Source: Dehalococcoidia bacterium
Lineage (GTDB): Bacteria; Chloroflexota; Dehalococcoidia; Lucifugimonadales; UBA3495
Length of the DNA: 64,000 bases
Reading direction: 5' to 3'
Assembly (NCBI GenBank): GCA_965203835.1
Contig: OZ241919.1
Coordinates: forward strand, 596,188 to 660,187
Part shown: positions 7 to 21,899 of the stretch, one piece after another
How positions within the stretch are numbered: the first letter of the stretch is position 1
Layout of the letters: each line of letters starts with the position of its first letter
The notes under the pieces: model-generated
Told to the model about the DNA's origin: nothing
What the model saw: the letters and a program-made list of their open reading frames with translations, nothing else
The model's database searches: none
Position numbers and translations under genes: made by a program

Positions 7-2334
7 TTATGACCCCCCCACGATTGTGCTCGTTTGAGCCAAGACCATGCCGTCTGAGCCAACTACCACGACCAACGCCGCCTTTTCTTCATGCTCTGCA
101 TCTTCAACCAGGAGGAACAATTCACCTTGGTCCCCAAGCTCCTTACCACCCATAGCCAATGTGGTAGCGGGGTCGCCTCCTTTGGTACGGATGTCTACAC
201 GTGCGCCAGCCGCTGACCCCTCGATCATGATGTTGCACCGGAGCCGCCGCCACCTCACGTCACCAATGGACACGGTCGGCTGGGACGCTCGTCCGGATGC
301 CGCCAGAATCGGGACCACACACTCCTGTGGGCTGAGACCGCCGTGCTCGTATTCTTTGCCAGCTTCGTAGCAATGGATGCCTGGCGCGATGGCAATGCGG
401 ACGGTGGGGTCCCAGTGCCAAGATACAACCTGCTGGTCGGTTTGAGAGCCTTCCTTTAACCGCGCGCAGCGCCCTTTCCGTACCTCGGTAAGGTGTTCCG
501 GCAACTCAGCTTTGGGCAGGCCACCAGGCATCATCAGCCACCCGTGGTCAGTGACCACAACCACCTTTCCCCATCCGTGATCCAAGAGACTAGCTATCCT
601 ATCAACAAGACCTCGAAGTTCGGCGGCGGCATGGTGGACAATTCTCCACCCATGTTCGTGCCCGTATGTGTCGATGTTCCCCGACTCCAACCATGCGCGC
701 CCGGCGCTATCGCCAAGCTCCTCTGCTCCCAGTATCTGGAAGCCCTCATTACCTACCAGCCTCCGCAGTAGCCGGGCATTGACCTTCGCTCCGTTGGCCT
801 TTACAACAGTTTCAAAGCCCTCACCCCCGGCTAACTCGGAAGCTGCAGGAGAGACGGCCGGCTTTGCCGTAGCGGTTACTGATGGCAGAGCCGTCAGACG
901 TGGCTCCACTTCTACATCAATCCCCCTCTGCTCCAACATCGTTCCAAGCCGATGTGCCAAATCGAACCGAAGGCCGTCAACGAATAGCAGGCACGTTTCC
1001 TTGCCCACCTCCAGCGGAGGTCCTGTTTGGTAGCTGTCTGGCCCGGACACAGCAATGGCGTCCTGAAACGCCTCGACGATCCCTTCCAGCCACGGGTGAT
1101 ATACCGTCCGCGCGGCTGATCTCACGGCCCTGACGTCCTCCATTCTCTCGACCGAGGCAAGTGCGTCTAGGACAGCTAGGTCGGCAACCCATCCGTCATC
1201 AGCATATTTCTGCATAATCTCAGAAATAGATGTTCCCCATGCCATTCGTTCGGTGGCTCGCACCATTGTTGCAAGATGCTCAATGGCCTGGGCAAGAGGA
1301 GCGGACTCCAAGGAAGCCCATACCCAGCTTCGCCGCTCACCGTGGTGCTGCTCCAGTTCGAGAATCTTGCACCGAGCGGCATCAGGGTCTAAGCTCGACA
1401 AGCCTACCAGGGCGTCACGAAGAGCAACCTCTGCAGATTCATTGTTCTGGGGCCACGATTCCGAATGGTCGAGAAGCGGCAAAGTCATCTGTGGTTTGGC
1501 TTCTCGCAGCCGGTCGGGGATGGCTACGTAAAATGCGGGAGTTTCTGCGAAGCGACGCCAGACCATATCCCAATTGCCGTATTGCTGCCCCAATTTCTCG
1601 GCGGCTGCCACTTGGCCGTCCTTCTCCGGGTGGAAGTCGTAGTGACTTTCGCACAATGCCACAAATGCCGCCCACTCCTGGTCGGAGCACTCATCTTGAT
1701 ATTCTTTGGGGTCATTCATCCATCGAAGCACGTTCTTTACATTGTCGGGGTGGATCAATCCGTCCAGATAGAAGGCCCGTATTGGAGCGGCCCTACAGAT
1801 AGCCTCGATAGGCTCTTCCGCCAGCTTCAGAAGGGAACGCTGGAGTGCCTCTCTGGTCCCCTGGCCTCCATCTACCCCTATGCCAAGCCCTCCGTCCTTG
1901 GTCTGTAGGAATGCGTTGACTGTCCAGTCTCGGCCGTTCTTCTGGCTCCACAGCACTCCCCGGTATTGCAACTCAGCCAAGGGCTGCAACTGGACTGGGC
2001 AGGTCTCCAACGCCCGCATGTCCTGTCGTGAGTAGCCGGGCAAGTAGAGCACGGGCACCCTCTCCGGCGGTAGGCTGGGATGAGGAATCGTGCGGGCAAT
2101 AATGCACCTCAGCCAATAGGCTGGGCCGGTGTTCTCGTCTGGGGAGTATTTGCCCAGAACAAAGAGAGGCAACCGGTCCTTGAGCAAAGACAACAATTGC
2201 TCCCATTGCCGAGCCTCGTCCGTCCAGAGGACGGCGGCAGGTGGGACTTGGTCCTGCCTGTTGTGCGAGCTCGCACTCTCTAGCGCGTCGGCCAGAGCGT
2301 CGAGGAAGGTTCTGGAAACGGAGACGGTAGTCAC
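7..2334 (-). CDS. pglZ: BREX system PglZ (alkaline-phosphatase-fold protein)
   Basis: 775-aa ORF with PglZ-type blocks LLFVDGLRFD and VVVTDHGW. GTG start overlaps the pglX stop (GTGA). Last gene of the brxA-brxB-brxC-pglX-pglZ order. Confidence 0.9.
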   Translation of the reverse strand: MTTVSVSRTFLDALADALESASSHNRQDQVPPAAVLWTDEARQWEQLLSLLKDRLPLFVLGKYSPDENTGPAYWLRCIIARTIPHPSLPPERVPVLYLPGYSRQDMRALETCPVQLQPLAELQYRGVLWSQKNGRDWTVNAFLQTKDGGLGIGVDGGQGTREALQRSLLKLAEEPIEAICRAAPIRAFYLDGLIHPDNVKNVLRWMNDPKEYQDECSDQEWAAFVALCESHYDFHPEKDGQVAAAEKLGQQYGNWDMVWRRFAETPAFYVAIPDRLREAKPQMTLPLLDHSESWPQNNESAEVALRDALVGLSSLDPDAARCKILELEQHHGERRSWVWASLESAPLAQAIEHLATMVRATERMAWGTSISEIMQKYADDGWVADLAVLDALASVERMEDVRAVRSAARTVYHPWLEGIVEAFQDAIAVSGPDSYQTGPPLEVGKETCLLFVDGLRFDLAHRLGTMLEQRGIDVEVEPRLTALPSVTATAKPAVSPAASELAGGEGFETVVKANGAKVNARLLRRLVGNEGFQILGAEELGDSAGRAWLESGNIDTYGHEHGWRIVHHAAAELRGLVDRIASLLDHGWGKVVVVTDHGWLMMPGGLPKAELPEHLTEVRKGRCARLKEGSQTDQQVVSWHWDPTVRIAIAPGIHCYEAGKEYEHGGLSPQECVVPILAASGRASQPTVSIGDVRWRRLRCNIMIEGSAAGARVDIRTKGGDPATTLAMGGKELGDQGELFLLVEDAEHEEKAALVVVVGSDGMVLAQTSTIVGGS

Positions 2335-5300
2335 TCTGTCTTCGCCTCCTTCGCAGCGCGCTTCTGCGCCAAAGTAAAGTTCACGTCGTTCACCCGCTCG
2401 GAGCCGTCGGGGTCCCTACCGCGGTCCTTCTTCCAATTCACGTTTACTCGGCTGCGAAGAACGCCTGCGGCAACGAACGGACGGATGTTTAGCCGCACAC
2501 CGTCGTTGATGTCAGGATTCCAGCCCATTGGTTGTTCGCGTAGAGGCTTCCAGCGAACGTATATGTCGTAGGGCGGCTCCCCATCACGTATGGCTTCGAG
2601 CTTCCTTTGCAGTTCCAAGGCAGCTACTAACCGAGCGCTTGCCCCCGGAGTGCTAGATTCTTCGGCGGCTCGCTGAGTGCGAATCCACTCGCCCAAATAC
2701 GTGTATATGAGCCTGTCGAGATTGGCCACATCCAGCTTGTGGTAGTTCACAAGGGCCGAGAAACCGTCCCGCCGACCGTCCCAGACGTGCCAGATAAAGG
2801 GGCGCTGGTGGAACAGCTTGCAATGCTGGTTGAAGAAACCATCGCGGAGCCAGGCATCCAGTCCTTTGTCGGCGAAACCAACGTGTCGTAACAACTCGGC
2901 CTGATGCTCAACCGACCACCTTTCTCCATAAGCAGCCGCCAATATGTTCCGTAGTCTTTCGGAGCTAGGCTCCTGGCCTACGACCGGCGAGAGCGACAAT
3001 ATCCCATCAGAGATGGCCAGCGGGCTCAAGTCATCTGCTTTCCCTTCAGGCCACTGGTATCCAAGTAGCCTTCCCATCGCGACCTGTAGAGGTTCGCTAC
3101 TGTCTCTTGGGTCACCTCGGAAGAGCCACTGGGTTGGGTCCTCGGAGAAGGGCTCTGGAATGGGGCCGGTTGACTTGGCCGCCGCCTGCCAGTAGTCGAG
3201 ATCGAACGGCACCTTCTCAAAATATCGCACGTCCACACTTAGCTTCTGATTCACTTGCCGAACGCAAGTTGGGAATTCTCGTGATGAGCAAAACGCCCAT
3301 AATGCAGGAAGATGGGCAACATCCTTTGGCACTGCAACGCATATGATGTTCTCAAAGATTTCTCCAGTGTAGAGTGTCGCAGCAAGCCCGCGAGTGTAGG
3401 ATATTGCGATGCCCCTCCGCCCCCACGCCTCGCGACCTGCAATCGTCGCTCCTGCTCCCTGAGTTCTGGCGGCCAGAATCCCCGATCCATCCTCCCAAAA
3501 GATAACGCTCTCACGTCCGCCATAGAGGGTCGGTCCCGAGACTGTCAACTGTTCCGGTGTCCAAACTGCCCTCGGCAGAACTAATTCCCAGAAGAACCGG
3601 CGGAACCTTGGCGAGTCGCCTGTAGTGATCCCACCTCTGACGTAGGCGAACTTGCCAAGTACGCTATCGCGGTCAATGGGAGCAAAAGACACTATGGCAT
3701 CAGGATTGACTAACACCGATCCTTGTTTGACGGACACTAGAGAGGAATCTAGTAGTTGGCTTGACTTCGCTTCCGGGTCAGTTCCTTCAGAGACATCTAG
3801 GCCGACAAATTCATTAGTAAGAGAGGGCGTAACTTTGTCCACGATCAGCACCGCTGTGAAGGCACCAGCCGCGGCACTACTTGCAAATGCATGTTCTCCC
3901 AACTTGATTGCGGCCTTCCAAGTGTCCTGAGCGAGTGAGATCTCCCGCAATCTCGCATATCGTTTGAGAAATAGCCAGTTCTGAGGCGTGACCACCGCAT
4001 ATGTGCCCCCAGGTATGCAGAAGGCACCAGCGCGTACCATAAAGGCGGTGGCCAGATCCGCTCTCGCTTCTTCATAATGTTGCTCAATGAAATCCTTGAG
4101 TACATCTCCTTGCTTGCCGCGTGCGAGATACGGCACATTGGTCGCAACCAGAGTATATTGACGTGCCAGCAGTTCGGCGGCACGTGCAGCTCCCAGGGCG
4201 GCACTCCCAAAGACTGCCGCGACCGGGTCGTCAGCCCTCTCCTTTGCTAGCGCTCCTTCCAGGAGTGGCGCAACCTTGCCGAAGTCAGGCGTGAACATCC
4301 GCTCTGGGACCGGAACGTTCATAGGATCAATAAGACTGCCAAGGTCCGGCCCATTCACGAATAGCCCGTGCAGCCTCCCCAGGGTCTGTCGCATGTTGGC
4401 GTCGTCTCCTGCCAGCTTAGTCCATGCTTCACTCTGTCCACGAACCGCTATGCCTGAACATGCGAGATTCAGCGTAGGCAGTTCGCGGTAGCCCCCAACC
4501 TTCCATGCCGAGAGCGCAAGGGAAAAGGCAGCGATTTGTACGCACCGGGGGTCTATCTCCAGTCCGAATAGATTGTCACGAAGCACGGAGTCAGCCGCCT
4601 GAGTCTCACTGATGCCCTCTTCCTCCATACGCATCTGGCGGAGCATTTCGAACGCAACTACCAAGAAGTGACCCGAGCCACAGCACGGGTCCATCACAGT
4701 GACGTCCGCCGCCCTTTCTGGCCATCCTGGGAATGAACCGGTTGCCGGCGCTCCATCCTCCTGCAATCGAAGATACTTGAATCCCTTTACCAATGGACTT
4801 GCGGGATACCGTGCAGCCCACCATGCGCCAAGCGAGTTCTCCAGCAAGAACCGCACCATGTAGTCTTCGGTGAAGAGCTGAGAGTAAGCGGCCAAGTCCA
4901 GCTTCTCGATCTTTCGCCCGCTGCCGCTGACTTCCCTTTTCTTCTTCGACTGCCAGAACTGGTATACCCAGCCAAGGCCGTCGTCGGACGTGAAGACTGC
5001 AATGGGAAGGGTGCTCAGGATGTCCTCAAGGGCGGCGCGGTCTTCAGGAGCGAAAGTGACCTGGCCACTGGGGTCGTCGGAGGGAAAGATGCCTGGCAGC
5101 ATGTTGCCTGCGTACCGGGCTGCCGTTGCCCACCGGTCCGGGTCCCCCTCTTCCGAAGTCAGTTCCTCGCACTCCTCCAAAGTCACGGCCACACCGGCAG
5201 GGTGCATGAGCAAGTCGCTTTCGGCTAGGAACTGCGCGAACAGCATCCGATGCCACTGCACATACGCCACCTCCTCAACGAGCAAGGCGAATCCGGTGGA

Positions 5301-5504
5301 CTGGCTGCCGGAACCCAGTTGGCGGGCCTTTGCCCGCAACGCATTACGAAGCGCCCTCTGCTCGCTCGTAAGCGTTTCGAACGCCCTTTGCTGATTGACG
5401 GCCAGAACATCCAGGGCGGCGCGTGCCGCATCCTCGGCTTCCTCGCGTGCCGCTATGATAGCCTTCTCCAGGGCAGACCTTAGCGTGGATTCTAGCGTTG
5501 CCAT
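2331..5504 (-). CDS. pglX: BREX N6-adenine DNA methyltransferase PglX
   Basis: ORF 2331..5546; most likely ATG at 5504, preceded by GAGGTAAGGA. SAM-binding block MDPCCGSGHFLV and catalytic NVPY (NPPY-like) block. More than 1000 aa, as usual for PglX. Confidence 0.9.
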   Translation of the reverse strand: MATLESTLRSALEKAIIAAREEAEDAARAALDVLAVNQQRAFETLTSEQRALRNALRAKARQLGSGSQSTGFALLVEEVAYVQWHRMLFAQFLAESDLLMHPAGVAVTLEECEELTSEEGDPDRWATAARYAGNMLPGIFPSDDPSGQVTFAPEDRAALEDILSTLPIAVFTSDDGLGWVYQFWQSKKKREVSGSGRKIEKLDLAAYSQLFTEDYMVRFLLENSLGAWWAARYPASPLVKGFKYLRLQEDGAPATGSFPGWPERAADVTVMDPCCGSGHFLVVAFEMLRQMRMEEEGISETQAADSVLRDNLFGLEIDPRCVQIAAFSLALSAWKVGGYRELPTLNLACSGIAVRGQSEAWTKLAGDDANMRQTLGRLHGLFVNGPDLGSLIDPMNVPVPERMFTPDFGKVAPLLEGALAKERADDPVAAVFGSAALGAARAAELLARQYTLVATNVPYLARGKQGDVLKDFIEQHYEEARADLATAFMVRAGAFCIPGGTYAVVTPQNWLFLKRYARLREISLAQDTWKAAIKLGEHAFASSAAAGAFTAVLIVDKVTPSLTNEFVGLDVSEGTDPEAKSSQLLDSSLVSVKQGSVLVNPDAIVSFAPIDRDSVLGKFAYVRGGITTGDSPRFRRFFWELVLPRAVWTPEQLTVSGPTLYGGRESVIFWEDGSGILAARTQGAGATIAGREAWGRRGIAISYTRGLAATLYTGEIFENIICVAVPKDVAHLPALWAFCSSREFPTCVRQVNQKLSVDVRYFEKVPFDLDYWQAAAKSTGPIPEPFSEDPTQWLFRGDPRDSSEPLQVAMGRLLGYQWPEGKADDLSPLAISDGILSLSPVVGQEPSSERLRNILAAAYGERWSVEHQAELLRHVGFADKGLDAWLRDGFFNQHCKLFHQRPFIWHVWDGRRDGFSALVNYHKLDVANLDRLIYTYLGEWIRTQRAAEESSTPGASARLVAALELQRKLEAIRDGEPPYDIYVRWKPLREQPMGWNPDINDGVRLNIRPFVAAGVLRSRVNVNWKKDRGRDPDGSERVNDVNFTLAQKRAAKEAKTE

Positions 5505-5520
5505 CTTCTGATCCTTACCT

Positions 5521-8500
5521 CTACGGGATGAGCACGGGGTGCTCATCTACGTGGGCTAATAGCTGTTCCCTCAATCGTTGGATGTAGGCTTCTACTTCTT
5601 CGCGGCTATTCAGGGTTGCCGGATTGGGACGGACCGTGACTGCCTTCGGTGCCAGCAGACGGGCAGCTTCCTCTCTCGCGTGAGCAATCCGCGTTCTCAG
5701 GGCCAAGATTCGGTCATTCCATTCCTGTATGCCAACATCTTCGAGACATTCCATTAGCGCCTTGTCGGTGCCAATGTCGAGATCAGGAATCGGGCCTAGC
5801 CTGTTGGAAGCCAGGATCCCAGCGCCATCTCCAGGCTTTAACTTCAGCCAATCGTCCGACTTCTCAAGTTCAGTCACCTCTCGGTCGCGCTCCCCGCGTA
5901 GGTGTCCGTGTGCTTCAGAGACCGTCTTTCGCAAGGCAGCCGTCACCTGGCTGAGAAGCGGTGGAAGGGGGTTGGGATCAGTCAGCAGAGAACGTTGGGA
6001 CCGAATCGCTTCCAACTGGGGTTTCAATTCCTCTGCGATAGCCAAGTTGTGAGCATGATGCAGAAGTCTCTCCAGCCGAACCCACTCGGGCAGGCGTTCT
6101 TGTGCAGCCTCGCCAGCCGCCGCCCAATCCTTATGGTGGTTGACTAGGGTGTCCGACCTTTCGGCCACTCCAACGATCTGACGGTTCCCAGCCATTTCCC
6201 GAAGCTCCCTGACTATCGCGGCGTCCGGCTGTGCGGGAAGTGGAGCCTCCCCACCGGCAGCCTGGGCTTCGCTCTGGAGTCGATCCAAAATCGCCAACAC
6301 AGCCTCAGCTTCCTCTCCGCTCTTTGCTGGAAGGCCCATCACTGATGCGACCTTGCGAACCTCTATCCGCTGGGCAGCAGACACGACGACTCCCTCGCTG
6401 AAAAAATCGGTAACTCCTATCTGTTGCTGATTCAGATCCTTGGCAGCCATAGGCTGCCCGCTGCGAGCAGCCCGCAAGAACCCGCCTGCAAGCAGTGCCA
6501 AGAGAGCACCATCAACAGCGTCGCGTGACCACCCGTAAGGTGGGTCCGAAAAGTGACGGCGTACGTCGGAACCCTTCTTTCCTGCACCCCCGACAAAGCT
6601 CCGTATCTCTAGGCAAACAGGATGATTCTCCACGTCGGAAGAGTACCCGAGGGTTGAAAGTGCGTCGGCAGCACCCTGCAATGCCCTAGTTACTACTCTG
6701 TTCCAGCCGCTCTGGTCCGCATCTGAAAACTTGGGGAACAGCCTAATCAAGGCAGCCTCGACGGCCTGTCCGATGGCCTCAGAGAAGGACGCGGCAACGA
6801 TTTCGTTACCACCGCCCTGGTAGACCCGGGCGTTTCTGATGATGTTGTCCACGAGGTCGCTGACGCGCCTCCCTTCGACATCTATACGGGACTGCATTGC
6901 TCCTCTTGCTTCGATCCCTGCGCTGGTCTGCGGAACCGCTCGGGTGCTGACAGTCTCCTCAGCCGCACGGAGTCGACCGATAGCCTGTCGCAGCTCGTCA
7001 GCTTCAAGTCTCGGCAGGAAGACGAACACAGTAGGGTCATCAACCCCCGCTTGCCTAGCTTCTTCACGCACGGACCCGAGCGCCGCTGACCATTCATCTT
7101 GTACCCACAGAGGAACGCTGCTTCCGTCCGCTGCTGGCCTCTCTGAACCCAGGTACACTTCGTACTTGCGTGGTGTCCTAGTGGCTCCTTGTAAGAAGCT
7201 GAGCCCTCTAAGGGCCGTGGCTAGGGCTTCTCTTATAGCCGTTTCACGCTCGGCTGCCATCCGTACGTCATCCCCGAGAACACGGGATAGGCGGCTTCGG
7301 TAATCCGTCTCCCATTCGATACTCTCCGGAGTCTGGAGTCTGTATTCGCCATCGAACAAGATTAGCGTTCCTGCATCCACGAGACCCTGAAGCACAACCG
7401 GGACCTGTTGCCGCAGAGATGCGCTTCCGGCAGTTAGGTCATCGATCACTAGATCTGCTAGGGCATCAGAGGTGGCGCGGACTCCCGTTGCCAATGGACC
7501 TTCGTCCCGCTCCAGTTTGCCTATCATGAAAATCAGTGCGCAAAGACGGGACTTGAGCCTGCCATCCTCCGAGTCATCGTCTAGCTCCCGGATCAAGGTT
7601 GCCACATCACGCGGTAGGATAGCGCTCTGAAGCATCTCGGTCTCAACTTGCCAGTAAATCGCGTCCGCTCGTGCAACCGTGCCCAGTGGCTTTTCTGCAA
7701 CCTCACGGGCAGTGTCATGGACGATGCGTAGCTGGGTCCTCAACTGCCCGGCTGTCCCTGCACTATCGACTGACCGCAACATCCGTTCCCATAGACGCCG
7801 CCGCACGGGAAGCATCGGGTAGTCAGCTACACGGTCCTGGACATCACTGGGCTGGGGGCCGATTCTTGTACCTGCCAAGTGGCGGTCGATCTCACCACTG
7901 GCCGAATCGAGCACTTTCTTCACAGAAGCAACCTTGTCCGGCGTCTTTCGCAGGACCACTTCCCTTACAACCTTCTCGACATCGACGTCAGAGAGGGTCA
8001 CACGTATCGAGAATCGGCCCTGGAGCTTTGAAAGTTCCGTATTGGCTTGGAGTGCCGACTGCCCAGTGCCAACGAACAGGAGATGACTCCCGAACTGAGT
8101 AGCGCAGGCCTCGACAACGTTCTGTACATGAAGCGTTCGCTGCGGGTCGTTGCCTATGAACTGTTGGAGTTCGTCGAAAACGAGCAGCGTAAGGGGCGGT
8201 TTGTCGGGAGTGGTCGACTGGAGCGCGAGTACATCGGCAATTGCACTGTGCAGTTCAGCATCCGATATATCCTGGAGATTCGGGTACTGCTCCCGGAGCA
8301 ATGTACGGACATCCGGCGAACTGGAAGCCAAGCCTGGGATCACTTCTAGCAGGGATTCAGCCAGCGCCGGCGAGACGTACATATTTCGAAGTTCGTGGTT
8401 GAGAGTCTTGCTTCGCGCTTCAATTGCAGCGTCTACTGCGTCGTACCAGCCATTTTGCTTTAGCCATATGACAAGCCGGGCTGCCGGGTATTGTTCAGGC

Positions 8501-8985
8501 AAATTTGCGCCCCTGAAGAGGATAGCCAGCAACGCCAGTCTGACGGCGCCCGCACCAGACCCGAGAGTGCCCGCTGCGGACCACAGGCCCCCTTCTTGTC
8601 TACCTAATCGCGACAACTCCACAAGGTTGGCATCCAAGTCAGAGGGCAGCGTAACCAGGGAACGGGCCCGAGCACCATCAGGGAATTCCACATCCCGCCA
8701 AAGGTATTCGAGTACTCTGACTAGGTGGCTCTTTCCGCTACCGTAGAAGCCGCTCACCCAGACGGCCTGTTGTTGCGGCTGCGAGATGTTGGTGAGGAAC
8801 GCCGAGAGTATCCGGTCCAAGCCCTGTCGGTACTCGCCTTCACATACGAATGACTCTAGCTCGTACCTGAGGACGTTCCACTCGTTCTCCGACTGGGGCT
8901 GGATAACCTTAGTTACGCCGTCGTTTGGGATAACTGTCGTAAGTGGGTCTCTGGAGAGAACATCCCGGATTCTCATGTCTGGCAT
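5521..8985 (-). CDS. brxC: BREX ATPase BrxC/PglY
   Basis: 1154-aa ORF with Walker A GFYGSGKSH near the N-terminus and a Walker-B-like LLVFDELQ. Lies between brxB and pglX. Confidence 0.88.
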   Translation of the reverse strand: MPDMRIRDVLSRDPLTTVIPNDGVTKVIQPQSENEWNVLRYELESFVCEGEYRQGLDRILSAFLTNISQPQQQAVWVSGFYGSGKSHLVRVLEYLWRDVEFPDGARARSLVTLPSDLDANLVELSRLGRQEGGLWSAAGTLGSGAGAVRLALLAILFRGANLPEQYPAARLVIWLKQNGWYDAVDAAIEARSKTLNHELRNMYVSPALAESLLEVIPGLASSSPDVRTLLREQYPNLQDISDAELHSAIADVLALQSTTPDKPPLTLLVFDELQQFIGNDPQRTLHVQNVVEACATQFGSHLLFVGTGQSALQANTELSKLQGRFSIRVTLSDVDVEKVVREVVLRKTPDKVASVKKVLDSASGEIDRHLAGTRIGPQPSDVQDRVADYPMLPVRRRLWERMLRSVDSAGTAGQLRTQLRIVHDTAREVAEKPLGTVARADAIYWQVETEMLQSAILPRDVATLIRELDDDSEDGRLKSRLCALIFMIGKLERDEGPLATGVRATSDALADLVIDDLTAGSASLRQQVPVVLQGLVDAGTLILFDGEYRLQTPESIEWETDYRSRLSRVLGDDVRMAAERETAIREALATALRGLSFLQGATRTPRKYEVYLGSERPAADGSSVPLWVQDEWSAALGSVREEARQAGVDDPTVFVFLPRLEADELRQAIGRLRAAEETVSTRAVPQTSAGIEARGAMQSRIDVEGRRVSDLVDNIIRNARVYQGGGNEIVAASFSEAIGQAVEAALIRLFPKFSDADQSGWNRVVTRALQGAADALSTLGYSSDVENHPVCLEIRSFVGGAGKKGSDVRRHFSDPPYGWSRDAVDGALLALLAGGFLRAARSGQPMAAKDLNQQQIGVTDFFSEGVVVSAAQRIEVRKVASVMGLPAKSGEEAEAVLAILDRLQSEAQAAGGEAPLPAQPDAAIVRELREMAGNRQIVGVAERSDTLVNHHKDWAAAGEAAQERLPEWVRLERLLHHAHNLAIAEELKPQLEAIRSQRSLLTDPNPLPPLLSQVTAALRKTVSEAHGHLRGERDREVTELEKSDDWLKLKPGDGAGILASNRLGPIPDLDIGTDKALMECLEDVGIQEWNDRILALRTRIAHAREEAARLLAPKAVTVRPNPATLNSREEVEAYIQRLREQLLAHVDEHPVLIP

Positions 8986-9542
8986 TAGTTGTCCCCCTCT
9001 ATCGGCACCGCATGGTAGTTCCAGCCGTCACGGGCATTGAGCAGTCGCCAATTGGAGCCATCTCGCTGTCCTGGAAAAAACGCCAGCAGACGGCCGCGTA
9101 TCTCGGAATCGACCTTCGCAACAAGCTCAGCGACTCGTATGAGACCGAATAGCGATGCTAAGCCAAGCAGCGCCACCACTGTATCCTTAGCAAGATTCTC
9201 ATCAACGCCTGGGCGTTTCAATTCCTGCCGCACCCGTTCCGCCACATAATCGGAGAAATCAACGAGCGCCAGTTCCAGGTCTTCCGGATGCTCAAAGTAC
9301 GCATCCTTGTACTCGTGGTTAGCCATCCACTCTGCGAACCAATCGGTGATGTCTACCTGGTGCCACGTATGTCCGGCATCGGCCGTGGCAGTCTGAAACT
9401 CGCCGAGGCGTAGCCGCAGGCGACGCTCTTGGCCGGGATCATACCTTGCAAACCACACTCTTTGTGCCCCAGCAAGCTTAAAGTCCCAGGGAAGCTTCAC
9501 GTACCGCTCGTAGCGGCTCAGAAGATCCTCTATCTCACTCAT
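8985..9542 (-). CDS. brxB: BREX protein BrxB (DUF1788-like)
   Basis: 185-aa ORF translationally coupled on both sides (ATGA with brxA, TAATG with brxC). Size and position fit BrxB. Call rests on synteny, not on a motif I can verify by eye. Confidence 0.7.
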   Translation of the reverse strand: MSEIEDLLSRYERYVKLPWDFKLAGAQRVWFARYDPGQERRLRLRLGEFQTATADAGHTWHQVDITDWFAEWMANHEYKDAYFEHPEDLELALVDFSDYVAERVRQELKRPGVDENLAKDTVVALLGLASLFGLIRVAELVAKVDSEIRGRLLAFFPGQRDGSNWRLLNARDGWNYHAVPIEGDN

Positions 9543-10336
9543 AGTGCCGGCTCTCCTTGGTCACGCATAAGATGTTGAAAGCTCACCTCCACTACATCTC
9601 CAGCTGCTCTGTACTCGATCCAGCCCTGACGGGAAGCTATGACCGCCAAGGCTTTTAGTTCGTGAATCGGTGCGTCCAGCATATTAGCCCACAGCGTGGT
9701 GAAGAGGCCCTGACCGCGCTTGCCGCAGAGATCACCCAATAGGAGAGCGTAAGCGAGTGATGTCGGACGGGCACGCGATTTGGATCTTCTCTTTGTTAGC
9801 TGCCCAGACAATAGCCCGGCTTGCTCCCAGGAAGACGCCACATTCCTCCCGAGGCGTTGGCGGGAGCTTGCCACGAATTTCCCGGGGAATTGGTGCTCAG
9901 CTTCCTCCGCAAATTCATGGGGCGTGACCGTTGTGTCCATGGGAAGGCGAAGTACGAACGGAGTCATCGCTCGCAGGATTGGGTCTCTCGCGGTCGAACA
10001 TAGCAGGGCGATCATCGGCTGTGCGCTGCCATCGGCATCCCACAGGTCTTTAAGAGCTCTGAAGATCAGCATGTTGGGGTCCAGCCCATAGAGTTCGCGA
10101 AGCCGCTCGAAGGTGATGCGACGCGCAGAGGCCGTTGGTTTGCCCAACAGGTTTTGATCAACTATAGCGGCCTTGTAAGCATCCTCTGTAGCAGGCGCCG
10201 GGCGGCTGGCTAAGAGAATGCGTAGCTCCTCCAACTTCATGGTGCTACTCAGGTGAGTGCCAGTTGGGTCTATCCTTAGTCCGGAGGTCGAAGCTGATCG
10301 CGGCACTCGTGAATCCATGGTCGTCATAATCCTCAA
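9539..10336 (-). CDS. brxA: BREX protein BrxA (DUF1819-like)
   Basis: First gene of the cluster; size and position fit BrxA. Start is ambiguous: TTG 10336, ATG 10327, or ATG 10318, the last having the best-spaced GAGGA. Confidence 0.65.
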   Translation of the reverse strand: MRIMTTMDSRVPRSASTSGLRIDPTGTHLSSTMKLEELRILLASRPAPATEDAYKAAIVDQNLLGKPTASARRITFERLRELYGLDPNMLIFRALKDLWDADGSAQPMIALLCSTARDPILRAMTPFVLRLPMDTTVTPHEFAEEAEHQFPGKFVASSRQRLGRNVASSWEQAGLLSGQLTKRRSKSRARPTSLAYALLLGDLCGKRGQGLFTTLWANMLDAPIHELKALAVIASRQGWIEYRAAGDVVEVSFQHLMRDQGEPAL

Positions 10337-10361
10337 TATAGCCCTTAAATGGATTTGATGC

Positions 10362-10398
10362 TACAATAGCAGGAGAATTAACTTTAAAGTCTCCTGCT
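10362..10398. promoter_or_regulatory. Divergent brxA / PAPS-reductase control region: TACAAT box plus perfect 9-bp inverted repeat
   Basis: AT-rich 75-bp spacer. TACAAT at 10362-10367. AGCAGGAGA-N13-TCTCCTGCT at 10368-10398, immediately upstream of the AAGGAGG SD of the 10412 gene. Could be an operator or a 5'-UTR hairpin. Confidence 0.35.
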
Positions 10399-10411
10399 AA
10401 GGAGGTATCTA

Positions 10412-11158
10412 ATGTCAATCCGACACGTCCTGAGCTTTGGTGGGGGTGTGAACAGCGTAGCCCTCATGGTCGTCCTACTGCGAGAAGGGCTGCCCTTCGA
10501 TGAGGCGGTGTTCGCTGACACGGGAGGAGAGGTTCCCGAGACGTACCAATACCTGGAGATCGCCAAGCAGTACCTGGCCAATCATGAAATACCCCTCACT
10601 GAAGTATCCAAGCGGGGGCGCTCACTCTATGATACGGCGTGGGACCGTCGGGTATTTCCGTCAGCTATCTGGAGATGGTCTACCAGGGACTTCAAAATTA
10701 CGCCGATTCAACGGCATTACAGGTCGTTGGATGTTCACATCAACCAATACCTAGCTATCGCGTGGGATGAAGTCCATAGAATGAAGGACAGCCGGGTTGA
10801 CTATGTGACCAACCTGTATCCTCTAATTGACCGGCGTCTCACAAGGGCAGACTGTGTAGACATTATCCAGGAGGCTGGACTGCCCATCCCGCAGCGGAGC
10901 TCTTGTTTCTTCTGCCCGTTCAACTCCGTTGACCGGTGGCGCTGGTTATACGAAACCCACCCCGACCTCTTCGATAAGGCCATCGCACTTGAAGAAAACT
11001 CAAAGCACTTCCCCTCTCAGCGGCTCACAGATCAAGCCTTTCGTGAGAGGACTGACATCTCTCTCCGTTCCCTCGCCAAGATATTCGCTGACGGGAGTCC
11101 AATACTGGCTCAAACAGCCATCGAGCAACAGCCATGTGGGGCCGAGTGCGGGACATGA
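10412..11158 (+). CDS. PAPS-reductase / DndC-like PP-loop family protein
   Basis: N-terminal PP-loop block LSFGGGVNSVAL (SGGxDS-like, D replaced by N). C-terminal cysteine pair SSCFFCPF. Strong SD AAGGAGG. No CysH-type ECGLH C-terminus seen. Confidence 0.8.
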   Translation: MSIRHVLSFGGGVNSVALMVVLLREGLPFDEAVFADTGGEVPETYQYLEIAKQYLANHEIPLTEVSKRGRSLYDTAWDRRVFPSAIWRWSTRDFKITPIQRHYRSLDVHINQYLAIAWDEVHRMKDSRVDYVTNLYPLIDRRLTRADCVDIIQEAGLPIPQRSSCFFCPFNSVDRWRWLYETHPDLFDKAIALEENSKHFPSQRLTDQAFRERTDISLRSLAKIFADGSPILAQTAIEQQPCGAECGT

Positions 11159-11378
11159 GCAAATGGAAGCCTTTTTAGAGTCAGATAGTGGAAGCTCGCG
11201 AAGTTCCGCTGGCCCAGCCACGCTGGACTTAGCGCAAACCTCATCCCTCGTATCAGCATCCAAGCTGGAGTCCGTGCGGGTGCCAGTATGAGCACGGAGT
11301 GGATTACCCTCGGCCTTCCGAACCCGACGCGACTGGGTTGCTTTGCTTGAATGCTTCGAGTACGGGTCTCCCGCACAG

Positions 11379-11750
11379 CTATGCCATAGCCTGTATGACT
11401 ACTTCGCCCCCGCTTTCCACTTCAACGTTCAAGCTGTGCCCATCAAGCAACAGCATTCCTACCAGCGGAGTGCTGCCCGTCGCATCGGCTTCGATTTCCC
11501 GCGGCTCGTCATCCCACACGAGCGTAACGTTGTGAACGTTGAACTCCACTTGGTCGTCGTTGGCCAGGAATGCCCGGCCTACGTAAGCGAAAGGCAGCCC
11601 CAACTCGTTCACCAAAGTCGGCGGCAGGGTCAGGAAGCCGGTGTAGCCGGTGTCCACCACGGCCTCGATTTCCTGGGTCCGTCCTTCAGCACTCTGCAAG
11701 GTAAGGGATACTACCGCTTCATATGCGGCGTTCACCACGCCTTGGATCAC
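11379..11750 (-). CDS. Retropepsin-like (clan AA) aspartic protease
   Basis: 123-aa ORF with VVDTGYTGFLTLP (DTG active-site block) at the usual position. GTG start overlaps the upstream stop (GTGA). GGAGGA SD. Confidence 0.75.
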   Translation of the reverse strand: MIQGVVNAAYEAVVSLTLQSAEGRTQEIEAVVDTGYTGFLTLPPTLVNELGLPFAYVGRAFLANDDQVEFNVHNVTLVWDDEPREIEADATGSTPLVGMLLLDGHSLNVEVESGGEVVIQAMA

Positions 11751-12025
11751 CCGGTCCTCCGCAGGGACCCGGCACCGAAGCTGCGCAGCGCCCGGTATCC
11801 CACGCGCTCCATCAACACGTCAACCGCGCCGGGCCGCTGCGTCCGCAATCGCTCCAACGCTTCCTTCGCGCTGTTGGCGATGGCCCAGTCTCCGGTGTCC
11901 ACGTCGATAGCGGCGTACTTTCCAAAGTGACCGTCCTCGACCTTGGGCAGGACGTCGCGCTGGTAGATTTCCTGGCCCAAGCGGGCGATCTCTTCCTTCG
12001 GACGGGTTGGCGCGTTCACTGTCAA
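11747..12025 (-). CDS. Small partner protein of the aspartic protease (DUF5678-like, antitoxin-sized)
   Basis: ~90-aa ORF translationally coupled to the protease gene. Likely start is GTG at 12019, 8 nt after GAGGG. Function not recognisable. Confidence 0.5.
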   Translation of the reverse strand: MTVNAPTRPKEEIARLGQEIYQRDVLPKVEDGHFGKYAAIDVDTGDWAIANSAKEALERLRTQRPGAVDVLMERVGYRALRSFGAGSLRRTG

Positions 12026-12276: not shown

Positions 12277-13458
12277 CTAAACGCCCTCCAGTTCACTCCG
12301 CTTCAGCATTGCGGAACAGCCCCGCTCGTCCACGATATGGTTCACCGACACCCGCCCCCGGCTGTCGTAGCCGGTGGTGTAGGCGAATTCCACTTGGGCG
12401 CCCCAGGGCACCCGGCCGCCGGTGCGGATGGTGCCGTCGCCAGGCTTGCCGTTGCTCCTCGGCCCACCGGCGCCCTTGATCACCACGCCCTTGCGGTCGT
12501 CCTTCTTCCAACCCATCACCCTGAGCCCCACCGGCGCCACCAACTCCGCCGCAGACGGCGCGAACAGAACCTGGTGCAGCCGCCGCAGCACGTCCCCCGA
12601 CGGCTTGCGCTGGCCGTTCATGACCAGGGAGAGCATGGCGGAACTGATGCCCGCCCGGCGGGCCGTCTCGTTCTGGCTGATGTCGTGAGCGTCCATGCGC
12701 TTCCACAGCACGCTGGGGTCCACGTCGGAGCACTGGGCGGACTCGACCTTCACCGGAGCCTCCAGCACCACCTCCATCCGGGCCTGGGCGGCGGGACTCA
12801 GACTGCGCTGGCCCCGGGACACCATGACCACGTGGCCGTAGCTCAATCCCGTCCGTTCCGCCACCTGCCGTAGGGTCATGCCCCGCTCCCGGGCCCGCTC
12901 CCGCAGGTAGGTACTCTCGCCGCCCTGGATCACGCTGCCCTGTCGGTTGGCGCACTCGGCGGGGGCGATCTCCACCGGACCGCCCAGCGCCTTCTCGACT
13001 CTGGCCTGGACCGCCGGACTCATGTGCCGCTTGCCCCGGGACACCTCCGACAAGTAGCCGGCGGACACGCCCACCAGGCCGGCCAGGGCCTTCATGTTCA
13101 GGCCCCGCTCCCGGGCGCGTTCCCGCAGGCAGGTGCTTTCGCTCTCTACGAGGTCGCCCTGTCGGTAGACCACGCCCTGCCCGGGCACCTCGCCAAGGAC
13201 CGCCTGCGCCCGTTCCCGCAGCATGGGAGACCAGGGGCGGCGCCCGCTGGCCACCGAGGACAGGTAGCCGTAGCTGACGCTCATCAGGTCAGCCAGTTCC
13301 CTGAGGGTGAGGCCCCTGCGCCGGGCGGCGGCGCGGAGTTCGCTCTCCGGCTTGCCCTGGTTGGGCTCCTGCTCTGCAGCGTTGGCGGAGTTGTAGTTGA
13401 CGTTTTTGACGTTGATCTTTGCCGTAGTGTCGATACCGGTATTGGAATTCGCCTTCAT
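12277..13458 (-). CDS. Transcriptional regulator with four tandem XRE-type HTH domains
   Basis: ORF track gives 12277..13917, but the ATG at 13458 has a GGAGGA SD and the upstream extension is Arg/Pro junk. Four repeats of the pattern RG(L/M)T(L)R..A...G(V/L)S.GY(L/V)S.V.RG.R..SP....R....L. Confidence 0.8.
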   Translation of the reverse strand: MKANSNTGIDTTAKINVKNVNYNSANAAEQEPNQGKPESELRAAARRRGLTLRELADLMSVSYGYLSSVASGRRPWSPMLRERAQAVLGEVPGQGVVYRQGDLVESESTCLRERARERGLNMKALAGLVGVSAGYLSEVSRGKRHMSPAVQARVEKALGGPVEIAPAECANRQGSVIQGGESTYLRERARERGMTLRQVAERTGLSYGHVVMVSRGQRSLSPAAQARMEVVLEAPVKVESAQCSDVDPSVLWKRMDAHDISQNETARRAGISSAMLSLVMNGQRKPSGDVLRRLHQVLFAPSAAELVAPVGLRVMGWKKDDRKGVVIKGAGGPRSNGKPGDGTIRTGGRVPWGAQVEFAYTTGYDSRGRVSVNHIVDERGCSAMLKRSELEGV

Positions 13459-13470
13459 GTCGTTTCCTCC

Positions 13471-13518
13471 AAAACGCAGAAAGCGGGGGCCGTCCTCGTC
13501 GATGAGGACGACCCCCGC
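13471..13518 (-). terminator. GC-rich hairpin with U-rich tail in the leader of the 4xHTH gene (terminator/attenuator candidate)
   Basis: Stem GCGGGGG(CC)GTCCTC / GAGGAC(GA)CCCCCGC at 13483-13518. On the minus strand it is followed by TTTCTGCGTTTT and then the SD. T-rich tails are present on both strands. Confidence 0.5.
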
Positions 13519-13868
13519 TTTGCTGTCAGCTGTTTGTTTTTTCAGTCGTCGGTGGCGTGGATGGCCGCGCCGGCGGCCCCATGGATGAGTGGTGGCGTCC
13601 GCCGTCCGGCGCAAGAGCGCCCAAGGTGGCGCCGGGGTTACGGTTTGTTCATGGGCATTCCTCCGTGGTCGTCGTAGTCGTGGATGTGGTCGTGGTGGCA
13701 GTAGCCGTCGCCGTGGTGGCATCGGCGGTTCACGCGAGGCCGTCCCTGCCGACAATGAGGTGGCGGCGCTGGCTGACCCGGCGCCGGTTTCGTCGTGTCG
13801 CAACTGGCAGAGACGCACGTCACCCCGGGACACAGGCCGGCCCGGAATGACGCGACGAGGAAGGGAAA

Positions 13869-14087
13869 GGGGAGAAAGGGTTGCGCCGTGGGGCAACGCC
13901 GTAACCGGCGATGACAAAGCGCAGAGCGCAACGAAGAGCGCCGCCGTGCCATCGGAGAACGACAGAGGCAGCGGAGAGAGGGAGGTCGGCTAAGCCAGGG
14001 AACGCCGGAGTTCATAGTCCGCGCAAACCCGGCGATGGCAATGAGCGAGGAACGGGGAGAGGGAGGGCTGCGCGGCCGGGGAACGCT
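13869..14087. repeat. Three imperfect direct repeats GGGGAGAG(A/G)GAGGG-N8-12-GGG(G/A)AACGC
   Basis: Copies at 13869-13900, 13971-14006 and 14052-14087, spaced roughly 80-100 bp. They lie in a ~1.2-kb stretch with no convincing ORF. Confidence 0.5.
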
Positions 14088-14739
14088 ATGTCAATGCCGA
14101 CGGCGCAGCAGAGGCACGATACCGGTCTGGCGCTGCCGCAATGCCGGAGCGTGGTATGAATGCCGCGACGTTGCTGTTGTTGAACAGCTACATCGCAGGC
14201 GTGAGGAAGCGGCCGGGGACGGCGATGCCCGTTCCAGCCGCTGAGTGAGGGGTGAGCGCTGTGTCCTGTGCGCTCGGAGAGTGAGTCAGACCGATTGGTT
14301 CAGGTCCTGGGTTGCCGTGTGGTTCTGGTTTTCACCTCCTGGACGATGTTGGCGACGCTGACGACCTGCGCCAGCATGGTGTGATGGTGTCCCGCATCGA
14401 CGTGGGCGCCGGAGGAGCAGGACTCAACCCCGGAGTGCCGCGTCACGCAGCGGGCAGGCGCTTGTCCCTGGTTGAGGCCGCCCGAGGGAGAGCGGGGCTC
14501 GATCCCTGGCGAACGGTCCGGGTCGGGGACGGACCCTCCAGCTTTCTGCGGGAAAACTGGCAAAAACCGTAAACTGCATTGATTATCACCCGCGCTCCCG
14601 CCGCAGGGAACGGTTACAGCGAGCACCTGGCCCGCCCCGACGGTGAATGCTTGCTCTACGCTCGCTGGAGGTTCGCTGGTATGCCGGAAACCTTGCCCGT
14701 CAGCATCGGCCCCGGCTTCGACCAACCACCACCAGCGGT

Positions 14740-15623
14740 CTAATCCCACCACGCCCCCAGGGTGAGGATCCGCCTGATCCAACGCAGCAGCGTGCGTTTC
14801 CTGATGGACACCTGGGTGCGGTACAGCGCCTTCCAGCGCCAGCGGGTGTGGTCCCCCGGGCCAAGCCCTTCACCGGCTGCAGCGCCGGCGGCACGGTCAA
14901 CTCGTGCTCTTCAAACATGGCCAACTCCAACGTCAGCAGCCGCTCCTGGTCCTCCAGCCAGGACAGGCTGCGGCCCCGGACGGGATGCCGGTCCTTGAGC
15001 TTGCGCCACTCCTGCACCAGGGGCCAGGCATCGCCGTAGACCTCCGGGTCGTCCTCGGCGGGTTGGCGGGTTACCATCTCCGGGTCCACGCGACGGCGGC
15101 GTGCCGGCCTGCCCGGTTTCAACCCCGCCACCGGCGGCGCCGTGGGCGTTACCGAGGCCGGGGTGTTTGCGTTGCCGCTTTCGGCCTCCGCCCCAGTCTG
15201 AGCCTCCCCTGTGTTCCCGCCGTCGCCGTCAGCGTCGCCGCGCACAACGTCCCGTCCCCCACCGGCCAACGGAGCCACGGGCAAAACATCGCCGCCCCTT
15301 TCCTCCAGGGCCGCCACACGCTCCGCCAGCCGCTCCACCTCCCCGCGCAGCCGCGCCACTTCAGAATCGCCGCCCGCGCCCAGCAGCAGTTCCAGGGCGT
15401 CGGCCACTCGCCCGGTGACCCGGTCCTCGTCCAGCGCCCGCGCCACGGTCTTGTAGTTCACCCCCAGCAGGGCCGCCGCCTCCATCCGTCCCTGCTGCCG
15501 CTCCAGCTCCCGCAGGAACCCCATCAGCTTGACCTCCCGCAGCCGCTCCACGTCCCCGTCCACGCCACCCGCACCGGCGCCATCCCCCGGCTGCGTCCCG
15601 TCCAACTCGCGCTCATCCATCAT
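14740..15623 (-). CDS. Hypothetical HTH/coiled-coil protein, apparent 1-nt frameshift near 14853-14857
   Basis: ATG at 15623 after GAGGAGG. HTH-like AAALLGVNYKTVARAL. Downstream of a C5 run, high third-position GC moves to another frame, which ends at TAG 14740 (...DHTRWRWKALYRTQVSIRKRTLLRWIRRILTLGAWWD). The uninterrupted ORF runs to 14700 with a low-complexity tail. Confidence 0.6.
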
Positions 15624-15644
15624 TGACCTCCTCGCCTTACCGTC

Positions 15645-15963
15645 CAATAGGGGGCTTGTCCTGTAGGGGGCCTTCCCGCTCCCCAACCAACCCCTTCCCC
15701 CCGATTGCTCTCTCCGATAGGGCTGGACGCTCACTTCCCAAAAGGGAAATGGCCCTGGCGTTTCCGGAACCGGCCCTCACCCCCAAGTGCTCGCCAATAG
15801 GGGATTCCGGCCCGGTTTCTTCCATCGGTTTTGAGTTCAAAAGGGCCGGAAAGTTCCCAAAAGGGAACTGACCCCAATCCCTGTACACGGGTATCACATC
15901 ACATCCGGCCCAATTCCTCCTATTCCCTATAAGGGAGGACGCCGGAGACCCTCCCTGTAGGGA
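15645..15963. promoter_or_regulatory. Motif array in a divergent intergenic region: six (A/G)TAGGG(G) sites plus two TTCCCAAAAGGGAA sites
   Basis: CCAATAGGGGG 15645; CTGTAGGGGG 15661; CCGATAGGG 15714; TTCCCAAAAGGGAA 15735 and 15854; CCAATAGGGGA 15794; CCCTATAAGGGA 15925; CCCTGTAGGGAA 15952. Confidence 0.45.
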
Positions 15964-16073
15964 ATTGGATTCCGCCCCCCGGCTTCCCACACTCGGTTGA
16001 GGGCGAATGCCCCCGGGACCGCCAACCGGCGGTCCCAAAACCCGGACATTCCGACGACATGGAGGCAGAATTT

Positions 16074-20436: not shown

Positions 20437-20517
20437 AACGCCAACGGGGCCGGACGGTTTATTCCGTCCGGCCCCGTCATATTCGGGAAACTCCTTGCGC
20501 CCTGGTCAGTCCTGGAC

Positions 20518-20829
20518 TTACGTGTGCGCGGCGCTGGCCTCGCTTTCGGCATCCAAGTCAGTATCAACCTCCGGCTCTCCCGCCTCGGGCAGCAGGTGGT
20601 GGAGCAGCCCCAGCCGGGCGGCCAGGGCGAACAGCGACACGAGGTGGCCGGAGCCGACCCGGGAGCCGGCCTTCCAGCGCCTCACCGTTTCGGCATTGAC
20701 CCGCAGTTCCCGGGCCAGGCCCCGCCAGCTAAACCCGGCGGCCTGCCGGAAGCGGTCCATCCGGTCGGAAAAGTCCGCCGGGAACTCCTGGGGCTCCGTG
20801 TGGTAGACGTACTGCTGACGGCTTCCCAT
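20518..20829 (-). CDS. Small HTH protein (paralog family 1 of 3 genes)
   Basis: Block AGFSWRGLARELRVNAETVRRWKAGSRVGSG is shared with the 20833 and 21332 ORFs. Confidence 0.6.
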   Translation of the reverse strand: MGSRQQYVYHTEPQEFPADFSDRMDRFRQAAGFSWRGLARELRVNAETVRRWKAGSRVGSGHLVSLFALAARLGLLHHLLPEAGEPEVDTDLDAESEASAAHT

Positions 20830-20832
20830 CCT

Positions 20833-21664: not shown

Positions 21665-21899
21665 CGACCCGCTCCAGGACGAAGAGAACGTTGAAGTCGG
21701 TGACGCCCAGGGCGTCCATCAGGCGCTGGCGCACCCCGGGCGAGGCGAAGCGCTCTCCGCTCATCAGCTGGGACATGTAGCCCGACCTGATGCCGGCCCG
21801 GCGCGCCAGCTCGTTCTGGCTCATGTTGAGCCGGTTCAGCAGCTCCCACACCACCTCGGTGCGCAGCCTGGACCTGAAACAGGGCTTCCTGCGTTTCAT
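21657..21899 (-). CDS. XRE-family HTH protein
   Basis: 80-aa ORF with NMSQNELARRAGIRSGYMSQLMSGER. AAGGAGG SD. ATGA overlap with the upstream ORF. Confidence 0.75.
   Translation of the reverse strand: MKRRKPCFRSRLRTEVVWELLNRLNMSQNELARRAGIRSGYMSQLMSGERFASPGVRQRLMDALGVTDFNVLFVLERVDE

Follow-up and report, generated by a model that had tools for sequence, protein, structure and literature searches.

An SspD-like gene head-to-head with a type 1 BREX operon

The window analysed here is a stretch of 64,000 nucleotides from contig OZ241919.1 of a Dehalococcoidia bacterium (assembly GCA_965203835.1). At positions 10412 to 11158 of its + strand lies an open reading frame (ORF) of 248 aa with an ATG start, hereafter the target gene, which is a stand-alone, SspD-like gene of the 3'-phosphoadenosine 5'-phosphosulfate (PAPS) reductase/PP-loop fold. 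It stands head-to-head with brxA of a bacteriophage exclusion (BREX) type 1 operon. The gene had been singled out in a first-pass annotation of the same DNA, and the PP-loop and the CFFCPF motif reported there are both present in the translation. The N-terminus reads MSIRHVLSFGGGVNSVALM, with the PP-loop block LSFGGGVNSVAL at residues 7-18; CFFCPF occupies residues 165-170, within SSCFFCPF at 163-170, and the protein ends in QQPCGAECGT. The ECGLH tail of CysH enzymes, described earlier as missing, is literally absent, but the final residues CGAECGT do form a C-terminal cysteine tail (C242 and C246). An exact-sequence search with the window protein matched no contig.

With regard to family placement, the target is a PAPS-reductase-fold gene. 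Its residues 5-108 match Pfam PF01507 (PAPS_reduct) with 27.1 bits against a cutoff of 22.5, which bears out the fold suggested earlier, outside sulfate assimilation. The AlphaFold2 (AF2) model has a predicted local distance difference test (pLDDT) score of 83 and a predicted template modelling (pTM) score of 0.81. The best Foldseek matches of this model are CysH structures (probability 1.0, template modelling (TM) score 0.47-0.51, identity 16-20%), followed by the Fe-S sulfurtransferases TtuA, LarE, and NcsA. Among the PADLOC profiles, SspD matches with 111 bits (1.8e-32, profile positions 1-204 of 277). BrxP matches with 33.8 bits (2.6e-9, profile positions 136-250 of 779), in the nucleotide-loop region only, and the DndC profile gives no match at E<=0.01. 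The earlier description of the protein as DndC-like is therefore not retained. Nor is it BrxP-like, as the 34 bits to BrxP cover the PP-loop region only and there is no fusion to DUF4007. In PHROGs, the target matches phrog_424, "PAPS reductase", with 150 bits.

Sequence comparison indicates that the nearest characterised relative is SspD. Identity to the SspD of the Thermomicrobium roseum megaplasmid is about 36% in the alignment and 37.7% by tblastn; this plasmid SspD is the closest homolog in an annotated context, and SspD is the sister group in the tree. Bona fide SspD proteins, from the T. roseum sspBCD operon and a Chlorohelix plasmid, score 368 and 388 bits on the same PADLOC profile, as against 111 bits for the target, which is therefore SspD-like but outside the core SspD family. 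The phylogenetic placement proposed as a check thus yields SspD as the sister group, with the target family outlying and mostly ParB-partnered rather than BREX-partnered.

A homology search collected 880 homologs of the target. In the alignment, the target family, SspD, and the phage and actinobacterial homologs all keep C165 and C168 of the CxxC motif and C246 without exception. C242 and C246 are both invariant within the target's own family. Relative to SspD, C242 is offset by one residue, giving Cx3C instead of CxxC, and the second C-terminal cysteine of the aligned homologs is shifted. The nucleotide loop reads SFGGGVNS, whereas that of SspD reads SLSGGKDS, and it departs from the canonical SGGxDS by a glycine for the first serine and an asparagine for the aspartate. 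A GGGV(N/Q)S loop is also found in the phage and actinobacterial relatives. Within the family, the residues of the nucleotide loop and the cysteines do not vary, nor do many others. A sequence search of the PDB with the family profile returned nothing significant; the best match (E 0.049), located around the CxxC region, was chain C of 21fy, a protein of 270 aa named "PptA". A literature search on PptA found nothing relevant, and PptA may be the first related enzyme with a solved structure.

The PF01507 match, the CysH structures at the top of the Foldseek results and an N-terminal SFG that resembles a degenerate CysH loop could all be expected of an assimilatory PAPS or adenosine 5'-phosphosulfate (APS) reductase (CysH) acting in sulfate reduction. 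Nevertheless, we find this identity hardly credible. The structural matches reach a TM score of only about 0.5 at 16-20% identity, the ECGLH motif is replaced by CGAECGT, and the NCBIfam scan of the target returned no CysH match. No sulfate-assimilation (cys) genes were found in the window neighbourhood or in any related locus for which gene content was inspected. The family is instead found on mobile genetic elements (MGEs) and in defence islands. No Dnd genes were found in the window neighbourhood.

The neighbouring operon is of BREX type 1, as had been proposed: brxA, brxB, brxC, pglX, and pglZ, all on the - strand, form one operon. brxA (9539..10327; PADLOC BrxA, 1.2e-82) encodes 262 aa from the ATG at 10327 and is followed by brxB (8985..9542; PADLOC BrxB, 2.2e-66). 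brxC (5521..8985; NCBIfam BREX_BrxC, 730 bits; PADLOC, 1322 bits) encodes a P-loop ATPase with the Walker A motif GFYGSGKS and shows weak N-terminal similarity to SspC (PADLOC E 0.003) and to DUF6079 (Pfam E 8e-4). BrxA gave no match to the PADLOC SspB profile. pglX (2331..5546; PADLOC PglX, 1307 bits) encodes an adenine methyltransferase with DPCCGSG as motif I and NVPY as motif IV, and pglZ (7..2334) is of BREX-1 type B (NCBIfam BREX_PglZ_1_B, 860 bits, cutoff 400). As pglZ ends at base 7, brxL, if present, would lie beyond the window edge.

The NVPY at residues 470-473 of PglX stands in place of the usual NPPY. A degenerate PglX was considered on this account and rejected, since NVPY or NVPF is kept in nearly all members examined of this BREX subfamily, with or without the target gene. 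Because PglX keeps its subfamily-wide catalytic motif, nothing has been replaced as in type 4 BREX. The spacer between the two divergent genes had been put at 75 bp, which holds for the longest brxA ORF (TTG at 10336). It measures 84 bp from the likely ATG at 10327, which we prefer because the BrxA N-terminus MTT.DSRVPRSAS is conserved in all orthologs. A start at MKLEEL (10241) was rejected, as the 30 residues upstream of MKLEEL are conserved.

The GCAGGAG repeat over the target promoter

The spacer contains a perfect 9-bp inverted repeat, AGCAGGAGA-N13-TCTCCTGCT, at 10368..10398, with its arms at 10368-10376 and 10390-10398 on either side of 13 nt. It is abutted by a -10-like box, TACAAT (10362..10367, + strand), with a TG two bases upstream (TGCTACAAT). 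A Shine-Dalgarno sequence, AGGAGG (10400..10405, + strand), follows, with the ATG 6 nt downstream; it is mostly kept in the ortholog alignment. The box and the repeat thus lie directly before the Shine-Dalgarno sequence, as first described. A full sigma-70 consensus scan found no promoter. In most orthologous loci, a -10-like hexamer lies 1-2 nt ahead of GCAGGAGA, and TACAAT is probably the -10 box of the target gene, which would place the repeat over the likely transcription start.

The pattern GCAGGAGA-N-TCTCCTGC occurs once in the window and in 0/100 shuffles. The arms GCAGGAGA and TCTCCTGC are invariant in 12 head-to-head genome loci and near-invariant, slightly degenerate, in a thirteenth (L008), while the loop and the remaining spacer DNA of these 13 loci are variable and cannot be aligned. 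Among the head-to-head loci, the repeat keeps a constant spacing to the target ATG, whereas its distance to brxA ranges from about 85 to about 290 bp. Folded computationally as RNA, the repeat gives a 10-bp hairpin of -15.7 kcal/mol (z = -2.5), and an Rfam scan of 10200-11450 matched no family.

The half-site GCAGGA[G/C], which in the window is repeated over the target promoter at 10369-10397, extends well beyond the BREX-linked loci. It is found within 150 nt upstream of the gene in 33 of 40 family loci, with at least two copies in 27 of the 40, where 0.06 per locus would be expected. It also precedes ParB-linked and partner-less homologs with no BREX nearby, in bacteria as well as in archaea. 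Its layout differs between loci, comprising inverted repeats of differing spacing, an everted 20-bp palindrome or two to four direct repeats, and the half-sites often lie just downstream of a -10-like box or of an archaeal TATA-like box. The motif was not found upstream of homologs that are operon-internal. The whole window contains 6 copies of GCAGGAG on the + strand and 15 on the - strand, where about 6.5 would be expected on each, a mild strand asymmetry; it is not depleted across the window at large.

These observations argue for a conserved operator that belongs to the target gene. A protein-bound site would account for them better than an RNA hairpin or a BREX element, because the arms are invariant without covariation, the geometry is variable and the promoter is overlapped. 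As the motif travels with the gene in bacteria and archaea, the repeat is probably the gene's own operator rather than part of the BREX system, and its absence when the gene is operon-internal suggests that it acts on the gene's own promoter only. The co-regulated divergent transcription proposed earlier is accordingly not borne out by the fixed distance to the target ATG, the variable distance to brxA and the presence of the motif without BREX. The target enzyme is the sole protein common to all GCAGGAG contexts, as the BREX-linked loci lack the ParB-like proteins, and for this reason the enzyme itself may be the protein that binds the repeat.

This raises the question of whether the protein is a regulator rather than an enzyme. 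IbrA and IbrB, a PAPS-reductase-like and ParB-like pair, control eib expression in Escherichia coli, and the target could similarly be a DNA-binding (auto)regulator that binds GCAGGAG and tunes its own expression and perhaps that of BREX. Half-sites in inverted, everted or direct arrangement over the promoter of most family loci, their persistence where ParB genes are missing and the enzyme is the only common protein, and the head-to-head position with brxA would all fit such a role. We nonetheless regard it as quite improbable. The invariant nucleotide loop, cysteines and other residues are typical of an enzyme, and the AF2 model contains no recognisable DNA-binding domain. Moreover, the variable distance to brxA and the loss of the repeat in operon-internal copies speak for an effect on the gene's own promoter only.

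Genomic contexts of the family

The genome scan covered a single genome for each species and yielded 197 relatives; 80 loci were retained for analysis (loci are designated by L numbers). In all 13 informative genome loci with a target at 70-95% identity, the gene is head-to-head with brxA, together with brxB, brxC, pglX, and pglZ. The hosts are Dehalococcoidia, Caldilineaceae and other metagenome-assembled genomes of Chloroflexota. Two metagenome loci bring the head-to-head loci to 15, and two further BREX arrangements were found (L020 and L033), so that a link between the gene family and type 1 BREX, as first supposed, is well supported. The head-to-head order is kept although the far-flank genes differ between loci, and BREX adjacency persists down to 47-60% BREX protein identity, despite turnover on the opposite flank. 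Across the 15 head-to-head loci, target identity tracks BrxA and BrxC identity (rho 0.88-0.89), with a mean conservation of 84% for the target as against 78% for BrxA and BrxC.

In L020, the target homolog is convergent with a Lon-like brxL (683 aa), and the PglZ of this locus is 67% identical. In the archaeal L033, the homolog lies between two brxA-like genes and one ParB-like gene is retained. Both homologs belong to ParB-type branches, and in both cases it is the same BREX subfamily that adjoins. The archaeal operon (L033, 11500-20611) has the order brxA-brxB-pglX-brxC-pglZ, with pglX ahead of brxC, and its second brxA-like gene lies upstream of the PAPS-reductase-like gene.

Homologs at 47-62% identity are mostly without BREX and have a ParB cassette next to them instead, in Chloroflexota, Bathyarchaeia, Thermoplasmata, Nitrosomirales, and Poribacteria. 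The cassette comprises a ParB_N/Spo0J-like gene (about 272 aa, E 1e-18 to Spo0J), an HTH_ParB-like gene (about 190 aa) and a small third gene. ParB_N and HTH_ParB neighbours were seen at 20 of the genome-scan loci, as well as in L164 and L166; no ParB-like partner genes were found in the window or in L001-L014. The family is mobile, and a ParB/Noc-like gene pair adjoins most of its members, in Chloroflexota and archaea. In the archaeal ParB modules (L027-L030 and L026, L031, L034, and L035), the third gene is of one of two kinds, encoding either a 315-aa protein weakly similar to a type II nicking endonuclease or an Ntn-hydrolase/proteasome-like protein of 220 aa. Their sequences suggest restriction-like or effector partners.

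More distant relatives were found in Actinobacteria and in MGEs. Actinobacterial homologs, at 35% identity, adjoin genes for a cysteine desulfurase, a superfamily 2 (SF2) helicase, a GHKL ATPase, and a phospholipase D (PLD) nuclease, and a "DNA phosphorothioation-associated methyltransferase" is also present in these loci. In this set (L047-L080, e.g. L053, 3004-10795), the GHKL ATPase is MzaB-like, a 230-aa helix-turn-helix (HTH) protein is encoded, the phosphorothioation-associated methyltransferase (TIGR04096) is often present, and the PAPS-reductase-like protein reaches just 58 bits to SspD. By its gene content, the set looks like an uncharacterised phosphorothioate-type defence system. 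The possibility that L079 (Streptomyces yokosukanensis) represents the published SspABCD-SspFGH system was rejected, as the strain is absent from that paper. Viruses and plasmids hold an abundance of distant relatives (at least 581 IMG/VR matches), and the IMG/VR search for close homologs returned relatives at no more than 40% identity.

The reverse question, how often this BREX subfamily carries the gene, was addressed by a BrxA-based search of metagenomes, which gave 54 loci with at least 800 nt upstream of brxA. The target gene is absent from 52 of these operons, and the two that carry it are the two closest, with BrxA 62-64% identical. Exact-protein look-ups of homologs at 71-75% identity placed four of them in arrays of small ORFs and one alone. 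The conserved array (metagenome contigs L167, L168, and L170-L172) comprises over 20 small ORFs that run in one direction, with two Band_7 genes and ruvA-ruvC at its borders, and no repeat lies upstream of the homologs there. PHROG annotation matched 2 of the 10 ORFs scanned, both to families without an assigned function. The array may be an unrecognised mobile element with an orphan copy of the enzyme, its phage nature being unproven.

With these metagenomic homologs added to the tree, the array group and the lone homologs nest among the BREX-linked genes, which form no supported clade (0/100 bootstraps). Two earlier positions were given up on these grounds: that the BREX-linked genes form a single clade, and that all orthologs of at least 70% identity are BREX-adjacent. 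Since 52 of the 54 BREX operons lack the gene and most family members lack BREX, neither needs the other.

The same data leave room for a gene that merely hitchhikes, that is, an independent, self-contained orphan gene of MGE origin that serves modification or anti-restriction from its own operator-controlled promoter and is co-localised with BREX without any interplay. Such a gene would be expected to occur mostly apart from BREX, as the ParB-linked, array and lone homologs do, to have plentiful distant relatives in viruses and plasmids (the IMG/VR matches and phrog_424) and to be dispensable to related BREX operons. It would also carry its repeat into every context at no constant distance from brxA, and in the window the island adjoins what looks like an integrated element at tRNA-Ala. 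However, chance co-localisation does not readily explain why the same BREX subfamily is adjacent in at least three architectures, in bacteria and archaea, why the adjacency lasts to 47-60% BREX protein identity despite turnover of the flank, or why the ParB partners are missing where BREX is present (L001-L014 and the window). We therefore consider hitchhiking possible but rather unlikely. The gene changes context often, yet it is repeatedly met next to this one BREX subfamily, in no fewer than three architectures.

On the other side of the target gene, a two-gene pair on the - strand (11379-12025) encodes a 92-aa ORF and then a 123-aa clan AA (DTG) aspartic protease (TIGR03698, 58 bits). In L001-L005 and L012, this pair likewise comes after the target, and L020 has it as well (1343-1971). 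The BREX island abuts a high-GC block at 12277-25727 (67-73% as against about 57-60% around it), which looks like an integrated mobilisable element. This block contains genes for a 546-aa protein with four HTH_3 domains (12277-13917, - strand), a TrwB-like coupling protein (16559-18745), a Replic_Relax protein (18742-20436), and a large serine recombinase (24007-25716), the end of which overlaps the tRNA-Ala (25653-25727, - strand).

A possible sulfur-modification enzyme attached to BREX

Based on these results, we hold it quite possible, although just short of probable, that the target is an accessory DNA sulfur-modification enzyme functionally attached to BREX. In favour of this stand the SspD placement with the shared cysteines, the cysteine desulfurase and phosphorothioation-associated methyltransferase genes near the actinobacterial homologs, the restriction-endonuclease-like gene of archaeal ParB modules, and, for the attachment to BREX, the recurrent linkage, the correlated identities and the missing ParB partners. 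The family would then be a mobile nucleic-acid-modification gene, accompanied in most members by a ParB/Noc-like DNA-binding pair; in the lineage of the window, the ParB partners would have been lost and the gene fixed head-to-head with type 1 BREX. The enzyme would be of the SspD/DndC type and carry out a phosphorothioate-type modification. Sulfur would be loaded by a housekeeping cysteine desulfurase onto the CxxC and the C-terminal Cx3C, a cysteine set that possibly holds an Fe-S cluster, and the glycine-rich nucleotide loop would bind ATP and thereby activate the DNA phosphate. Targeting to DNA would depend on partners, ancestrally the ParB-like pair and here BrxA and BrxC. Methylation by PglX would thereby be joined by a second self-mark or by a helper activity. 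Expression would be set by a factor that binds the GCAGGAG half-sites over the gene's promoter, which may be the enzyme itself.

Several points weigh against this attachment to BREX or against the chemistry. The absence of the gene from nearly all related BREX operons, the array and lone homologs at 71-75% identity and the failure of the BREX-linked genes to form a clade are among them. So are the two deviations of the PP-loop from SGGxDS (serine to glycine, aspartate to asparagine), owing to which ATP pyrophosphatase activity cannot be assumed, and an SspD profile score that is one third of that of a true SspD. No cysteine desulfurase was found in the window, defence genes cluster in islands anyway, and the function of the family is read from its sequence and context.

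The comparison with known systems gives the proposal its shape. In the single-strand phosphorothioation system SspABCD, SspD shares with the target the PAPS-reductase fold, the CxxC motif and the C-terminal cysteine tail, as in the sspBCD genes of the T. roseum megaplasmid (L161). The target differs from SspD in an additional conserved cysteine, C148, and in its neighbours, which are BREX or ParB-like genes instead of an adjacent DUF4007/SspB or SspC gene. The SspB/DUF4007 protein has been found to have a BrxA-like (tripartite) fold, an equivalence that we take from that work (PMC12839542), and BrxC resembles and is homologous to SspC (PMC12914056, PMC12839542). As BrxC is an SspC homolog and SspB has the BrxA fold, we propose that BrxA, BrxC, and the target could reconstitute an SspBCD-like set beside PglX. 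The T. roseum plasmid locus (NC_011961, 90215-103182) contains a complete sspB-sspC-sspD operon, the SspC of which also scores as BrxC. Downstream of sspD are a second DUF4007 gene, a 166-aa gene, a 1401-aa gene without a PADLOC match, and a PglZ-domain gene, and its gene content suggests that an Ssp system and a PglZ system have been joined in this Chloroflexota relative.

BrxP is likewise a PAPS-reductase-domain protein attached to a BREX system, and it represents a fusion of SspD and SspB (PMC12914056, PMC12839542). However, it comprises about 780 aa, with DUF4007 and further domains fused, and replaces PglX, whereas the target is a stand-alone protein of 248 aa and PglX is kept. Phosphorothioate production by BREX type 4 has been demonstrated (PMC12914056), and surveys state or imply that the PAPS-reductase module defines type 4 and is absent from type 1 (PMC12914056, PMC12839542). 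The combination of a PAPS-reductase-like enzyme with a ParB-superfamily regulator in DndC/DndB mirrors the ancestral state of the target family. Nevertheless, dndD and dndE are missing, and the ParB partner of the target family is of the Spo0J/Noc type, not a DGQHR-type DndB.

The PAPS-reductase-like proteins of phages and plasmids (phrog_424, e.g. gp05 of Thermus phage P23-77) belong to the same domain family and share the GGGV(N/Q)S loop and the cysteine pattern. Like pairs of the IbrA/IbrB type, they resemble the target in their MGE habitat and frequent ParB association. In contrast, the viral relatives are no more than 40% identical, and a Pfam scan shows the target to be without a DUF3440-type extension. 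The function of the phage PAPS-reductase-like proteins has not been assigned in the literature, and a CysH-like gene is an accessory of type IV-B CRISPR-Cas (PMC11437467). The latter, compared here by description only, is likewise a PAPS-reductase homolog recruited to defence, in a different system.

A bolder version of the proposal, which we consider unlikely, would make the locus a BREX system with two marks. The target would use BrxA and BrxC to write a phosphorothioate or other sulfur mark alongside the N6-adenine methylation by PglX, and the locus would be a living intermediate between type 1 BREX and the Ssp and type 4 BREX systems. The enzyme would recognise GCAGGAG, so that its own promoter would read out modification or occupancy, in a feedback conserved from Chloroflexota to Bathyarchaeia.

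In a limited literature search, we found no description of a type 1 operon with an SspD-like neighbour, nor of a ParB-linked family with a GCAGGAG operator. The pairing of an SspD-like gene with type 1 BREX in a Chloroflexota lineage is not described in BREX surveys, and it may add a second DNA mark. If true, this would show how methylation-based and phosphorothioate-based BREX and Ssp systems swap parts, with PglX kept and an SspD-like enzyme added. The locus would also allow one to ask directly whether a sulfur-inserting enzyme can work with BrxA and BrxC in the way that SspD works with SspB and SspC. For the large PAPS-reductase-like family of phages, plasmids, and archaeal viruses, it provides a handle in the form of a defined partner, the ParB/Noc-like pair, and a cis element, GCAGGAG.

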